Positions 11,903-37,521 of a stretch of 37,521 nt of DNA are shown here, piece by piece (position 1 is the first letter of the stretch; every line of letters begins with the position of its first letter). The stretch lies in contig CAVXEP010000023.1 in assembly GCA_963760795.1 (NCBI GenBank), forward strand, positions 1-37,521. The letters are read 5' to 3'. The notes beneath the pieces were generated by a model that ran no database searches, was not told the origin of the DNA, and worked only from the letters and a program-made list of their open reading frames with translations. The DNA is from an uncultured delta proteobacterium. GTDB lineage: Bacteria; Desulfobacterota; Binatia; UBA9968. A program made the position numbers and the translations under genes.

Positions 11903-11958
11903 CTTCGCGGCTTGTCGAATGCGTCAACAGGGGTAACCACTCACACCCTCCGAAACCT

Positions 11959-11986
11959 TTGAACTTTTGAACCTTGAACCCTGAAC
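11959..11986. repeat. short 7-mer tandem array (TTGAACC-like)
   Basis: ttgaact-tttgaacc-ttgaacc-ctgaac just downstream of the ABC ATPase stop. Confidence 0.6.
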
Positions 11987-15327: not shown

Positions 15328-15424
15328 TGGAGTGATGGAGTATTGGAGTGGTGGAGTAATGGAAATCCGAATTCCTGAACCAACACTCCAGTACTCCAAC
15401 ACTCCATTCTACCGCGCTCCATCA
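15328..15424. repeat. inverted 8-mer tandem arrays (TGGAGTNN x4 / NNACTCCA x3-4)
   Basis: tggagtga tggagtat tggagtgg tggagtaa tgg ... cca acactcca gtactcca acactcca. Confidence 0.85.
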
Positions 15425-32912: not shown

Positions 32913-33416
32913 TTATTTGGCAGCGGCCAGAGCAGCGTCGTAGTTCGGATGCTCACCGATGCTGCCGACATATTCGACATGTTTCAGCTGGTTATCCGCC
33001 CCGACCACAAAGACCGCGCGCGCCAGCACTCGATCGAGCGGCCCGCCGGAAATCAACAAGCCGTAATTCTTACCGAAAGATGCCTCGCGATGATCGCTCG
33101 CGGTGATGATTTTGTCGACGCTCGAAGCCCCGCACCAGCGTTTTTGCGCGAACGGCAGATCCATGCTGACGACGACGACTTCGACATTGGCGAGCTTGCT
33201 CGCTTCCTCGTTAAAGCGCTTCGCCTCGACATCGCACACCGGCGTATCCAATGAAGGCACCGTCGCGATAATCCTGGTTTTGCCGGCGCCACTCGCCAAG
33301 GTGTAGTCACTCATGTCCGCGCTCTTCTGGACTTTGAAATCCGGCGCGGCCTGTCCAACCTTCACCTCGTTGCCGAGCAAGGTCAGAACGTTGTCTTTGA
33401 ACTTAACCGTAGCCAT
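32913..33416 (-). CDS. tpx: thiol peroxidase (atypical 2-Cys peroxiredoxin)
   Basis: VPSLDTPVC, RFN, VSMDLPFAQKRWC, SDHR, ARAVFV, HPNYD; AGGAGG RBS. Confidence 0.95.
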   Translation of the reverse strand: MATVKFKDNVLTLLGNEVKVGQAAPDFKVQKSADMSDYTLASGAGKTRIIATVPSLDTPVCDVEAKRFNEEASKLANVEVVVVSMDLPFAQKRWCGASSVDKIITASDHREASFGKNYGLLISGGPLDRVLARAVFVVGADNQLKHVEYVGSIGEHPNYDAALAAAK

Positions 33417-33506
33417 AATGTTTCCTCCTGTGATTTTTGGACTCGATAACAACTTCAACATATTTACTGGGTTCAACCGGAACTAGCAAGACAGAACATC
33501 TGGACC

Positions 33507-34220
33507 TCAGCGGCTAAATTTGAATTCTGTGCTGAGATTTTTCCACGAAGGGAATCGGGAAAATTCCTGTAACACCGTGGTGGTCGGCGGCAGGATCGGA
33601 AAATCGCGCCGGTTCATACGCGCCAACGCGTCCCCCGGCTTGATCCATAGACTGTGGGTCACCTCTTCCGAATATGTCAATGGAACTTGTCCTGACGGCA
33701 GAATCGCCGCATAAAAACGCGTATCGAAGCGCATCGAGTACATATCCGGTGTCACCCAATGATCGAAATAGACGGCCTGCGAAAGATCGCAATACAGATT
33801 CTCCGACTCCAGGAAGCCGGCGAAGTCCAGCTGCTTTTTTACCATCGCCTGACGTTTTTGCTCCACCCGCTGCTGGGTATCTGCGTCAATCGGATAAAAA
33901 GCCTCACCGGATTCGTTCACGCCGAGGAGAATTCCGACTTCCTCGAACAGCTCCCGTGCCACCGCTACCCAATGGCCGATAGCTTCATCCGGTTCGTGAT
34001 GGTTGCCGAGAATCTGCCGCGCCGTCGTACCGGACAAACGCCGACAACGCCGCAGCATCTCTGGAGAGAAATCATCGCGATGCACCGTCCCGCCGGGGAA
34101 AACATAAAAGCCGCCAAGAAAACGCATGGTTTCCGGCCGGCGAGTTAAGAGAATATCGAAACCACCCATTTCATCGGGCCGCAAAAGAACAACAGTGGAG
34201 GCGTTACGAGGTTGAACCAT
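33507..34220 (-). CDS. NUDIX hydrolase (NUDT19-like)
   Basis: RR...M.F.GG..VFPGG, ARELFEEVG, HWVTP, RFDTRFY, PPT. Confidence 0.88.
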   Translation of the reverse strand: MVQPRNASTVVLLRPDEMGGFDILLTRRPETMRFLGGFYVFPGGTVHRDDFSPEMLRRCRRLSGTTARQILGNHHEPDEAIGHWVAVARELFEEVGILLGVNESGEAFYPIDADTQQRVEQKRQAMVKKQLDFAGFLESENLYCDLSQAVYFDHWVTPDMYSMRFDTRFYAAILPSGQVPLTYSEEVTHSLWIKPGDALARMNRRDFPILPPTTTVLQEFSRFPSWKNLSTEFKFSR

Positions 34221-34228
34221 AGCCAATC

Positions 34229-34448
34229 AAATACGAAATCCGAATATCGAAATCCTAAATCCGAAACAAACTCAAATAACTATCAAACTCGGAAAATCCA
34301 AAACGCGGAATCCAAATTAAATTTGTTTCGTGCTTTCTGTATTTTGGGTCATTTGAATTTTTTTCGAGCTTCGTGCTTGGGTCCGCGGGGCCGCTTTCGT
34401 GCTTTGAACTTTGCAATTCACCTTGTCCCTTTACCCCTCACGCCTTAC
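34229..34448. repeat. gene-less inverted heptamer arrays (AAATCCG-type) plus a CCTTACG-type array
   Basis: aaatacg aaatccg aatatcg aaatcct aaatccg aaacaaa ctcaaat ... atttgaatttttttcg agcttcg tgcttgg. 34262-34277 vs 34351-34366 match 14/16 in inverted orientation. Confidence 0.75.
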
Positions 34449-34452
34449 GTCC

Positions 34453-35569
34453 CTATTCCTTGAGCCCCAGAACGTTGTAAGCAACAACCGCGCGCTGGAA
34501 CCCCTTCAATGATAACTCGCCGATCGATTCGACCTCGGCGAGATCAGCAATACTAGCGAGAAGCCGTTGCGGTAGCAAAATCTGCCCCGGCTTGGCCTCG
34601 CCGCATAGGCGCGAAGCCAGGTTACAAACCGTGCCGATGGAGCCGTAGTCCCAGCGTCCCTCGAAGCCGATAGCACCGATGGTCGCGTAACCTTGGGCGA
34701 TGCCGACGCCGAAGCCGAGTTCGTAACCGAGCTTCGACCATTTGCCGGACAATTCCTCATTGCACTCGCGCATCGCCAGCGCCATGCGGACCGCGCGCTC
34801 TTGCGGATTAGGCACCGGCACCGGATCGTTGAAAATCACCATCATGCCATCGCCGATGAAACACTCGAGCGTCCCCTCGTGCTCCATAATCAACCGGCCC
34901 ATGGCCGCGTGATATTCGCGCAGCACGCCCATTACTTCCTCGGGCTCGGCGGTTTCAGCGAACGCCGTGAAGCCGCGCAGGTCGAGAAACACCACTGTCA
35001 CATCGCGCCGGTGGGTCTTGAGCGGATCGTCGGCGCCGCCCGCGACGATCAATTCGGCGAGCTGCGGAGAGAAGAATCGTTTCAGCCGTTCCAATCGTTC
35101 CAGTTGTTCCACTTGCGTCTGAACGCGCAATTCCAGCGTCTTGTTCCACTCGGCTAATTGCGCCGCTTGCACTTGCACCATGTCATGCAATTCTTTGACG
35201 CGCAGCAGCGACTTCACCCGCGCCAGCAGCTCCGATTGATTGATCGGCTTGGTAAGAAAATCATCGGCGCCCGCGTCGATGCCTTTCACCCGTTCGACAC
35301 TGGGATCGAGCGCCGTGACCATGACCACCGGCAGCATCGCCGTCGCCGGATTATTGCGAATCGTCAGGCAAACCTCATAGCCGCTCATCTCGGGCATGAC
35401 GACGTCTAAAAGAACTAAATCCGGTGGCTCTGTATCGATCTTCAGCAACGCCTCCCGTCCCGACGCAGCCGTAATCACCGCATAGCCCTTCACGCCCAGC
35501 AAATCGGCCAGAAGCTTCACATTGCGCGGCGTATCGTCAACGACGAGAATTTTGGCAGGGTGTATTCAT
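34453..35569 (-). CDS. response-regulator receiver + class III nucleotide cyclase (frameshift near 5' end ~35558)
   Basis: ATG 35569 then (frame-corrected) AKILVVDDTPRN; LLDVVMP; FLDLRGFT, FIGD, GFEGRWDY, NLASRL. Confidence 0.9.
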
Positions 35570-35580
35570 TGTAGAAAATT

Positions 35581-35726
35581 AGTAAGGAGTAAGTAGTCAG
35601 GAGTGAGGGGATCCGCCCGGCGACTTTTCACGTTTTACGATCTTGCCAAGCTTACCTGGCGTCCTTTGCGCCTTTGCGCGAGAATCTCCCTCCGATCGCC
35701 TAACCCCTTACCACTCACGCCTTACG
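35581..35726. repeat. inverted heptamer arrays (AGTAAGG x4 / CCTTACN x4) enclosing a CTTTGCG repeat
   Basis: agtaagg agtaagt agtcagg agtgagg ... cctggcgtcctttgcgcctttgcgcg ... cctaacc ccttacc actcacg ccttacg. Confidence 0.7.
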
Positions 35727-36098
35727 ATTCTCCCCTAGAACCCGTTCCACTTCAGCGAAAAAGTCCTTCAACGTGATCGGCTTGGTTTGATAGCCGTCGA
35801 AGCCTTCGGCCAACATCGCCGTCCGATTATTCGTCATTGCCGATGCGGTGATCGCGATGATCGGGATGCTCTGCGTCTGCGCATCGGCCTTCAACTGCTT
35901 CATCGCCGTGATGCCGTCCATGCCCGGCAGCTGAATGTCCATCAGAATCAGCGCCGGTGATTCACTGCGCGCCAAATCGAGCCCCACCTCGGCAGTCTCC
36001 GACTCGATGGTCCGGTACCCTTTCACCTGCAACACATCGCGGCACAACTTCCGGTTCTTCTCGTTATCCTCGATGATTAGAATTAATTCGCCAGCCAC
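35715..36098 (-). CDS. single-domain response regulator (DivK-like)
   Basis: ILIIEDNEKN, ILMDIQLPGMDG, IAITA, GFDGY.TKP; GAGGAG RBS before GTG 36098. Confidence 0.92.
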   Translation of the reverse strand: MAGELILIIEDNEKNRKLCRDVLQVKGYRTIESETAEVGLDLARSESPALILMDIQLPGMDGITAMKQLKADAQTQSIPIIAITASAMTNNRTAMLAEGFDGYQTKPITLKDFFAEVERVLGENRKA

Positions 36099-36150
36099 GA
36101 GGCTCTCCTCTCTAGTGTGACGTAACGTTGCGCTCAATACTTCGAGATTA

Positions 36151-36601
36151 TTCACCACGAAGGTCACGAAGGACACGAAGGTTCAGAGAACAAATCTTCT
36201 AATGCCCTTTCTCAAGACATCAACGTTAAAGTTGATCAAAAGCCCGACTCCGACTTCAGTAAGTTTCATGTAGGTCAAAACTTGCGCTTCATGAATCTTG
36301 AGCAATTGATCGACGCTCTTCAGTTCAACAATCATCCGGTCATCAGCTAACAGGTCGATTCGATATCCACAGTCGAGCCTGATCTCTTTGTATTTAACAG
36401 GTAGTTCAACCTGAAGCTTAAACGGTATATTTGCCTGGTTCAGCTCGTAAGCCAAGCACTGCTCGTAAGTCGATTCAAGCAAACCAGGCCCGAGCTGGCG
36501 ATGCACTTCAATCGCACAACCAATCACCTTGTTCGATAATTCATCAAACTTCACTATCGTATTACTCTTACCTTCGTGCCCTTCGTGTCCTTCGTGGTGA
36601 A
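36151..36601. mobile_element. putative GxxExxY-nuclease intervening element bounded by 32-bp inverted repeats
   Basis: Left arm 36151-36182 ttcaccacgaaggtcacgaaggacacgaaggt. Right arm 36570-36601 is its reverse complement at 30/32. Encloses one ORF. Confidence 0.6.
36183..36554 (-). CDS. GxxExxY protein (PD-(D/E)xK nuclease fold)
   Basis: VIG.AIEVH..LGPGLLESTY (GxxExxY), RIDLL...IVELK, Q..TYM, G.LINF. GTG 36554 is the likely start; an in-frame ATG exists at 36635. Confidence 0.92.
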   Translation of the reverse strand: MKFDELSNKVIGCAIEVHRQLGPGLLESTYEQCLAYELNQANIPFKLQVELPVKYKEIRLDCGYRIDLLADDRMIVELKSVDQLLKIHEAQVLTYMKLTEVGVGLLINFNVDVLRKGIRRFVL

Positions 36602-36631
36602 CACCTCCAACAGCAAACTGAGCTGCCACAC

Positions 36632-37521
36632 TCATTGAATTGGCAGCGTAAATGTAAAAGTGCTGCCTTTGCCCACTTCGCTTTCGACCCAGATTTTGCC
36701 GCCGTGCATTTCGACGAAACGTTTCGTCAGCGTCAAACCCAAACCCGTCCCTTCGCGCTTGTGCGCGTAGTTGCCGCTGGCTTGACGGAACTCTTCGAAG
36801 ATCGCTTCTTGGTCTTCCTTGGCGATGCCGATGCCGGTGTCGACGACCGACAGGATCACCGCGCTGTCGCCCAACCTCGCCTCGACCTTCACCTGCCCGC
36901 CCTCAGGCGTGAACTTTACCGCGTTGGTCAGCAGGTTGACGAGGATCTGTTTGATCTTGCGCTCGTCGCCGGTGTAGTCGCCCAAGCGCTCGTCGATCTC
37001 CTGGTCGAGTTTGATACCGTGACGGCTGGCGCGCTCGCGCACCAGTAACATGGCGTTGTCGATGGCGTCGGGCAGGTGAAACGTCGTCACCTCCAACTCC
37101 ATGCGCCCGGCTTCGACCTTCGACAGATCGAGGATGTCGTTGATCAACGATAGCAAATGGCGCCCGGAGGAAAGAATGTCGTCGACATATTCATTTTGCT
37201 TGTCGTTGAACTCGCCGAAGTATTTTTCCAGCAGCACTTCCGAGAAGCCGATGATCGCGTTGAGCGGCGTGCGCAGCTCATGCGACACGTTGGCGAGAAA
37301 TTCGGACTTGTGGCGATTGGCCGCTTCGATCTCACGGTTTTTGTCGCCGATCTCGCGGAACAGCCGCGCGTTGTGGATCGCCAGAGCCGATTGCGTCGCG
37401 AAAGTTTGCAGTAGATTAATCACATCCGGTTCGAACTCGCCCACTTGTCGCCGCCACACCGTCAGGCCGCCCATAATCTGCTGTTCGCGCAACAACGGCA
37501 CCGTGAGCAGCGAGCGGTAAC
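36632..37521 (-). CDS. GAF-HisKA-HATPase sensor histidine kinase (C-terminal part; runs off window)
   Basis: FATQSALAI (GAF end), [38 protein letters not shown]. Confidence 0.95.

Follow-up and report, generated by a model that had tools for sequence, protein, structure and literature searches.

A GxxExxY nuclease gene inside a dispersed tandem-repeat hairpin: a putative selfish cassette in a bacterial kinase-receiver operon

Introduction

Terminal inverted repeats, an intergenic location and gene-less miniature copies that outnumber the gene-bearing ones are characteristic of MITEs and TIR-bounded insertion sequences. The 23S rRNA gene of Coxiella burnetii carries, in helix 45, an intervening sequence (IVS) described as having a 28-bp terminal stem in which RNase III cuts, with tandem heptamers and an AG-rich stretch upstream of its ORF (PMC4990558). 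Its distribution is described there as patchy, and it has been termed selfish (PMC4990558). The origin of ORF-bearing rRNA intervening sequences is a question that has been standing since the 1990s.

The DNA analysed here (the window) is a stretch of 37,521 nt, and contains a cassette that resembles the published description of this IVS. Both are elements of about 430–450 nt with complementary termini, which form a stem of about 28–32 bp around a small ORF, and in both the arm that precedes the ORF has short tandem repeats and an AG-rich stretch (PMC4990558). Unlike the IVS, the window cassette lies between protein-coding genes of an operon and not in a 23S rRNA helix. Its gene belongs to the GxxExxY proteins (PDDEXK_3), a large family without an assigned function, whose entry in a survey of the PD-(D/E)xK superfamily reads 'Unknown' (PMC3424549). 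A literature search with family names and topical terms brought up no published account of repeat arms beside GxxExxY genes; the hairpin cassette is widespread, and is undescribed in the literature searched.

We argue that the best explanation as a whole, to which we give a probability of about one half, is that the cassette is a hairpin-borne selfish element that undergoes exchange at the DNA level by a putative mechanism set out in the Discussion.

Layout of the locus

The source genome (G000; other genomes compared have similar handles, and contigs are numbered with a C) is an assembly of 6.58 Mb in 35 contigs, with a completeness of 89% and a contamination of 6%. The gene order on the minus strand is a histidine kinase gene (which ends at 36632), the nuclease cassette, a receiver gene, and then a receiver-cyclase gene. 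The features are, in the direction of transcription:

36632..37521, minus strand: 3' part of the histidine kinase gene (GAF, HisKA and HATPase_c domains), cut off by the contig end.
36602..36631, minus strand: spacer of 30 nt from the kinase stop codon to the 5' arm, within the tract that is identical in a second copy of the locus.
36570..36601, minus strand: 5' arm (sense strand of the gene), TTCAC followed by three CACGAAGG-N units and containing a Shine-Dalgarno-like GAAGG; identified by inverted repeat and pattern enrichment.
36555..36569, minus strand: leader of 15 nt from the arm to the GTG start, carrying AAGAG as read from the sequence; the closing stem of the RNA fold extends into it.
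36183..36554, minus strand: GxxExxY PD-(D/E)xK nuclease gene, 123 aa from the GTG, with PF13366 and TIGR04256 matches.
36151..36182, minus strand: 3' arm (sense strand), complement of the 5' arm; identified by inverted repeat and pattern enrichment.
36099..36150, minus strand: spacer of 52 nt from the 3' arm to the GTG of the receiver gene, carrying that gene's ribosome-binding site GGAGAG.
35715..36098, minus strand: receiver-domain response regulator gene (PF00072, E 3.4e-23), downstream of the cassette and in the same orientation.

A repeat search finds the inverted arms at 36151-36182 and 36570-36601, each of 32 nt, 387 nt apart and complementary at 30 of 32 positions (94%). Both have the same composition, namely a TTCAC head and then three CACGAAGG-N units. 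The two-unit arm pattern has four matches in the 37.5-kb window, all of them in the arms, where 0.05 are expected, and none of 100 shuffled sequences reaches four. The stop codon of the nuclease gene (36183-36185) directly abuts the 36151-36182 arm, and its GTG start (36552-36554) is 15 nt from the other arm. The GC content is 0.42-0.475 within 36100-36599, compared to 0.53-0.62 in the flanks. No Rfam family matches within 35400-36800.

The start of the receiver gene at 36098 was picked as a GTG preceded by a ribosome-binding site. For the nuclease gene, an ATG at 36635 that overlaps the kinase stop codon, and from which the arm would be read as HHEGHEGHEG, was considered as the start. It was rejected because the family model starts after the GTG, and because in relatives the stretch from arm to GTG is interrupted by in-frame stops.

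There is no target-site duplication at the ends of the window arms. Among 95 members of the hairpin family described below, 89 have no abutting direct repeat and 6 have one of 1 nt, which equals the shuffled expectation; element ends were assumed in this test, palindrome-like composition runs about 10 nt further out, and the true ends are uncertain.

An earlier note on this DNA had described the make-up and pairing of the arms, their distances from the stop and start codons, the AT-rich unit separating a histidine kinase gene from its receiver gene, and the absence of a target-site duplication. The repeat search, the coordinates, the GC content and domain matches, and the duplication test (with its assumed ends) bear out these points in turn.

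The receiver-cyclase ORF further downstream has its first ATG, GTG or TTG (a GTG at 35520) at position 12 of the receiver-domain profile. The in-frame sequence upstream of this codon (35520-35560) resembles the missing N-terminus (ILVVDD), so that translation may really begin at a non-canonical codon; alternatively, the gene may be damaged.

The nuclease protein

The only Pfam and NCBIfam matches of the cassette protein are PDDEXK_3 (PF13366; E 1.4e-43, 148.5 bits against a cut-off of 22) and GxxExxY (TIGR04256; 151.3 bits against a cut-off of 35). The latter covers profile positions 1-116 of 116, and thus the whole model. The window protein contains both the GxxExxY motif and the catalytic residues of PD-(D/E)xK nucleases (E, D and ExK). 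In an alignment of 66 sequences including the window protein, residues E28, Y31, D68, E78, K80 and Q92 are invariant, while G25 is conserved in at least 90%. Values of dN/dS are 0.02-0.08 in the 10 of 28 pairs with a computable dS, the remaining 18 pairs being saturated.

AlphaFold2 generates a confident model (pLDDT 94.5, pTM 0.88) with a restriction-endonuclease-like core. All leading structural matches are PD-(D/E)xK nucleases: Cas4, BpuSI, CinB, BglII and Hjc. The best Foldseek match is Cas4 SSO0001 (E 4.4e-3, TM 0.59), and the structural Z-scores are 7.7 for BpuSI, 7.5 for CinB and 6.4 for Hjc. Every score is within the common-fold range and none of these Z-scores exceeds 7.7, so that the fold class alone is supported. 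The model thus supports a predicted restriction-endonuclease-like PD-(D/E)xK fold for the window protein, as the earlier note had stated for the family. The predicted fold is a generic nuclease core, in which no DNA-recognition domain is obvious. A sequence search for solved relatives gave none, the matches being two sortase chains at E 0.3.

A similarity to Cas4 is also detected by Cas4 HMMs, as a weak match to residues 54-100 only (E 4e-4). Apart from this weak Cas4 core, defence-system models give no match, and there are no cas genes among the ORFs of 33000-37521.

Arms across the GxxExxY family

The arms are a feature of this gene family. In public genomes from many phyla, 51 of 79 GxxExxY genes have inverted tandem-unit arms scoring at least 16, compared with none of 560 shifted controls; an 80th locus was left out as its flank was too short. 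Within the genus and its sister family, flanking inverted arrays scoring at least 14 are present at 22 of 28 GxxExxY loci (two of them from the unpublished genome G004) and at none of 162 shifted controls.

The arm unit changes with the protein lineage, the units found being CACGAAG, CACGGAG, CACAGAG, CGCAGAG, CGCAAAG, CAGTGAG and CATGAAG. Armed genes at least 70% identical to the window protein all have CACGAAG arms (13/13), and armed genes at most 60% identical never do (0/16). The combination of CACGAAG arms with a window-type gene is found in Binatia-like, planctomycete, Desulfobacterota-like, Lentisphaerales, Pontiella and Pseudomonadota records. Different gene types within one genome have different arms, which argues that the arms go with the gene and not with the host. 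Comparison between hosts shows arms and gene to have travelled together.

In eight window-type cassettes the heptamer cores are identical at 296 of 301 positions, compared to 46% identity at third codon positions, a core value that is biased upward because counted units were limited to at most one mismatch from the core. In G005 one compensated arm change is seen, with CGCGAAG opposite CTTCGCG. To judge from these comparisons, strong constraint acts both on the protein and on the cores of the arm units.

A dispersed family of hairpins in the source genome

The arms at the window locus are not unique to the nuclease gene, and belong to a dispersed repeat family. The source genome contains 258 CACGAAGG arrays, which form 86 convergent pairs and leave 86 solo arrays. 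In 84 of the pairs the two arrays are 16-49 nt apart and form short hairpins without a gene. The other two pairs, at 403 nt, are the window locus and its copy on contig C7. The short hairpins are mostly intergenic, with 67 of the 84 outside the ORFs of a crude annotation that gives a coding density of 0.83, and most are about 50 nt from each adjacent gene.

As for genes, the genome has one locus of the window type (in two near-identical assembly copies) and one GxxExxY gene of another type. The third GxxExxY gene of the genome, on contig C4, is bracketed by an inverted array of CGCAAAG type, which is also dispersed.

The abundance of the hairpins appears to be linked to the presence of the nuclease. 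Genomes with an intact window-type gene have 45-279 CACGAAGG arrays in eight cases and 13 in G005. In those where no intact window-type gene was found, the count is at most 18 in 16 of 21 genomes, and is 118 in G040, 74 in G041, 57 in G037, 43 in G036 and 34 in G035. Three of these (G040, G041 and G037, with 57-118 arrays), which speak against the reading preferred here, are 91-97% complete. The link is suggestive, the counts being uncorrected for relatedness.

A separate observation concerns a stretch of about 7.2 kb in the source genome (C18:110244-117438), which holds three CACGAAGG hairpins and is unaligned in G040, G003, G013 and G006. In G040 there are about 750 nt between the matching flanks.

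Turnover at the kinase-receiver slot and at a second locus

The slot between kinase and receiver genes was extracted from 15 genomes of the genus. Its occupancy falls into three groups:

G000, G038 and G007: window-type gene, 78-90% protein identity, CACGAAGG or CACGGAGG arms.
10 genomes: gene of a second type (type B), 40-49% identical, CGCAAAGG arms.
G003 and G010: gene absent, 146-166 nt with other repeat arrays.

At least 3 of the 10 type-B slot genes are broken, the gene of G011 being split and those of G032 and G040 having in-frame stops. By flank identity over three loci, the nearest relatives of the source genome are G040 (93-95%) and G003 (89-92%). The window cassette type is absent from the slot in both, and present in the more distant G038. 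The G040 slot has one arm of each kind: on contig C27, a CACGGAG/CACGAAG-type arm and a CGCAAAGG-type arm surround a type-B-like gene with an in-frame TGA. This hybrid may represent an intermediate in recombination between cassettes of the two types.

The slot of G006 (C180) has, beside its type-B cassette, three extra hairpins of about 100 nt in tandem, with CGCCAAG/CGCTAAG-type arms, so that one slot can accumulate several hairpin modules.

A second locus, between two other genes, has a window-type cassette in G005, G006, G008, G011, G013 and G016 and in the unpublished G004. In the source genome this locus holds two arms in register with a loop of 43 nt and no gene. In 17 further genomes it holds a short hairpin of TGGAGT-type 9-mers (15 genomes), a broken cassette (one) or a composite (one). 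Three more CACGAAGG hairpin sites of the source genome have other array families in G040 and G003. This occupancy of orthologous sites by differing array families indicates that hairpin modules take one another's place at set positions between genes.

No clean empty site was found at these loci, and hence no exact junction: the gene-free slots of G003 and G010, and the three hairpin sites, all hold other arrays. Comparison of the genomes shows that a given intergenic slot can acquire a cassette, lose it or have it replaced by another, and that a cassette can drop its gene while its hairpin stays. Movement is rare, since many cassettes have stayed fixed at one site through speciation, as with type B in 10 genomes.

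Exchange between two copies of the window locus

Positions 1-3481 of contig C7 are a 95.2% copy of window positions 34051-37521. The flanks of the two copies differ at 148 of 2602 columns (5.7%), whereas the cassette and adjoining spacer (36151-36631) differ at only 2 of 481 positions (P = 2.6e-10). An identical tract at 36111-36632 corresponds to the whole intergenic region. Third codon positions account for most of the differences in the flanks (28 of 35 in the kinase gene, 15 of 18 in the receiver gene and 53 of 68 in the cyclase gene), an excess that shows the divergence of the copies to be real. This suggests a recent exchange of the cassette at the DNA level, with the reservation that the copies lie at contig ends that overlap, in a metagenome bin for which assembly effects or strain mixture are possible.

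Transcription and RNA folding

The strongest alternative to the preferred reading is an IVS-like device that acts in RNA, which we consider unlikely. The arms would pair in the operon transcript and RNase III would excise the cassette, freeing the mRNA with little harm to the host operon. The role of the nuclease, cellular or selfish, would then be unrelated to the arms, and the cassette would spread by ordinary recombination. This is close to a loop-out in the mRNA, which the earlier note had offered as its own alternative.

Several observations are consistent with such a device. The architecture matches that of the Coxiella 23S IVS as described in PMC4990558. The minimum-energy RNA fold of the cassette is closed by the arms (-180 kcal/mol, z = -7.2), and its stem covers the leader and the stop codon. 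The nuclease gene shares the orientation of the gene upstream in 57 of 70 loci and of the gene downstream in 61 of 77, and where both neighbours point the same way the nuclease gene follows them in 48 cases and opposes them in 5, as judged by crude longest-ORF calls. Neither promoter-like nor terminator-like sites were found in the window cassette. Contigs from RNA libraries cover parts of the nuclease gene, one of them extending across into the kinase gene, which is a weak hint given that DNA can occur in such libraries.

The arms themselves argue against it. Mismatches between them on the sense strand are G.U in 44 cases and A.C in 55 (61 cassettes, 5 of the 66 rows having been dropped for a pyrimidine-rich 5' arm), with no excess of G.U (p = 0.31), and thus the RNA stem leaves no selective trace. 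The loop-out idea therefore fits the fold and the gene orientation, and gains no support from the wobble test. In addition, the unit sequence itself is conserved beyond pairing (the 296/301 core positions above, with their upward bias), and the gene-less hairpins have no orientation bias relative to their neighbours (among the 19 of 95 elements that could be classified). Finally, an RNA device leaves the 84 gene-less copies and the replacement of cassettes unexplained.

Excision products were also sought, in contigs from two RNA and two DNA soil runs. Joints that skip about 390 nt were rejected as such products, because their loop letters differ, which marks them as further short members of the hairpin family. 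Where contigs end at the arms, this was read as assembly broken at a repeat.

Four-helix-bundle genes and other hairpin families

The nuclease is not the only gene found in such hairpins. Of six matches to TIGR02436 (the IVS-protein family) in the source genome, four are enclosed by inverted tandem arrays built of other units. These four are all of the near-full-length genes, and the two without arms are fragments. One of the repeat families concerned, TGGAGT, consists in the source genome of 32 short hairpins and one with a loop of 482 nt that holds a four-helix-bundle gene (C31:29940-30450). TGGAGT arrays occur in 31 of 31 genomes of the genus and four-helix-bundle genes in 30 of 31. Hairpins of this family also occur in 9 genus genomes where no GxxExxY gene was detected with the window protein as query, and hairpins can therefore persist without a GxxExxY nuclease.

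The window itself contains further members of these families. One of the 32 short TGGAGT-type hairpins is at 15343-15406. At 11954-11972, on the minus strand, is a tandem array of GTTCAA type, a pattern with 363 matches in the genome; arrays of this type also flank, as arms, the four-helix-bundle gene at C32:416210-416530. The spacer between receiver-cyclase and receiver genes contains an inverted repeat (35582-35725) with arms of 32 nt that are 78% complementary, 14-nt GTAAGGAG-type units and a loop of 80 nt, inside which is a solo CGCAAAGG array (35661-35678). In the nearest relatives, G040 and G003, this spacer is 739-741 nt long and has a TIGR02436-like four-helix-bundle gene between CGAAATCCGAAA-type arms.

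These families bring in a further alternative, which we regard as improbable: the repeats would be host or autonomous elements similar to REPs, spread by some other factor or by recombination, with the small genes as passengers in their loops and the nuclease serving the cell in repair or defence. It would account for the presence of two unrelated gene families in hairpins of different unit families, for the swapping of hairpin families at orthologous intergenic sites without any gene, and for the TGGAGT hairpins in all 31 genomes, and the weak Cas4-like similarity of the nuclease would fit a cellular role. It does not account for the arm unit tracking the protein lineage across phyla, nor for the differing arms of different types within one genome. 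Furthermore, CACGAAGG counts are high mainly where the window-type gene is present (uncorrected for relatedness), and the only match to defence models is the weak Cas4 core.

That this is simply a vertically inherited gene, flanked by a repeat through chance or as an assembly artefact, is very improbable: a GxxExxY gene is indeed carried by 13 of 15 orthologous slots, which goes some way towards the constant synteny that the earlier note had named as the contrary case, but the genes in the slot are of two types, with different arms and no more than 40-49% identity, some slots have no gene at all, and the arm pattern is far beyond chance and recurs in independent assemblies.

Discussion

Our preferred reading remains that of a hairpin-borne selfish element. 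As the hairpin is one copy of a genome-dispersed repeat, the window cassette has the appearance of a selfish gene-carrying unit of an undescribed kind, with affinity to the spacer elements of rRNA genes. The earlier note had proposed a minimal self-mobilising or self-excising element whose nuclease recognises its own repeat ends. The comparisons uphold this in so far as the cassette is discrete and exchangeable, as seen in the slots, at the second locus and between the two copies, and in that such arms go with the gene family in many phyla and vary with the protein lineage. They speak against a self-contained element, in that the arms are shared with 84 gene-less hairpins, and hairpin families with four-helix-bundle proteins, which are not enzymes, show the same pattern of one gene and many hairpins.

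The putative mechanism is as follows. The unit would be one gene-bearing copy of a hairpin-forming intergenic repeat family, in which two inverted arrays of the 7-nt core CACGAAG, spaced 8-9 nt, surround a small intact nuclease gene. The gene would be transcribed within the kinase-receiver operon, and so ride on the host operon. In the transcript the arms would pair into a stem of about 45 bp that hides the ribosome-binding site and the stop codon, and which may be cut by RNase III by analogy with 23S rRNA intervening sequences. The nuclease would recognise and cut the tandem units of cognate hairpins in DNA, and repair from another copy would then spread or replace cassettes and hairpins. Such spread would be homing-like, with no target-site duplication.

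A wider generalisation is possible, though we rather doubt that it holds in full. GxxExxY and four-helix-bundle (S23p/Avd-like) genes would be two cargos of a single pan-bacterial class of hairpin cassettes, of which the 23S IVS is the special case resident in rRNA. The nuclease would cut cognate hairpins, and repair would drive homing, replacement and the amplification of gene-less hairpins.

If true, this would provide a way to make dispersed palindromic repeats without a transposase. More generally, if the cassettes are of the kind that these comparisons point to, an orphan nuclease family, the S23p/four-helix-bundle family and many REP-like tandem-unit hairpins of soil and aquatic bacteria would merge into one testable system. 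Their study would also yield a candidate nuclease, specific for sequence or structure, whose target is known, and would account for how quickly intergenic DNA turns over between genomes whose flanking genes are 89-95% identical.

Comparison with known systems

The 23S IVS has two further similarities to the window cassette beyond those given in the Introduction. It is transcribed as part of a host RNA (PMC4990558), as the cassette probably is, and the TIGR02436 IVS-family genes of the source genome sit in the same kind of hairpin outside rRNA. Unlike the IVS, the window cassette encodes a PD-(D/E)xK nuclease and not a four-helix-bundle S23p protein, and it has dozens of dispersed gene-less copies in the genome.

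REPIN-RAYT systems, as described in PMC3337134, PMC3116915 and bioRxiv 10.1101/2022.05.22.493013, are similar in their many short, palindromic, intergenic and non-autonomous repeats, in having an associated gene, present once or a few times, with the repeat on either side of it, and in their long persistence within a lineage. They differ from the window system in the protein, which there is an IS200/IS605-like tyrosine (HUH) transposase and here a PD-(D/E)xK nuclease of 123 aa. The window arms are, moreover, arrays of tandem 8-9-nt units, with the gene inside one hairpin and cassettes that cross phyla.

With MITEs and TIR-bounded elements the window cassette shares inverted repeats, an intergenic site and an excess of gene-less copies. 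It differs in having no duplication at its assumed ends and no DDE or other known transposase, and in its arms, which are tandem arrays that form one long hairpin.

Nucleases of the Cas4/RecB type (4ic1, 4r5q) provide the best Foldseek matches to the model of the window protein (E 4.4e-3 and TM 0.59; Z 7.5). In contrast to Cas4, the window protein is about 80 residues shorter, aligns in the catalytic core only and is found outside a CRISPR context, between the arms of a hairpin.
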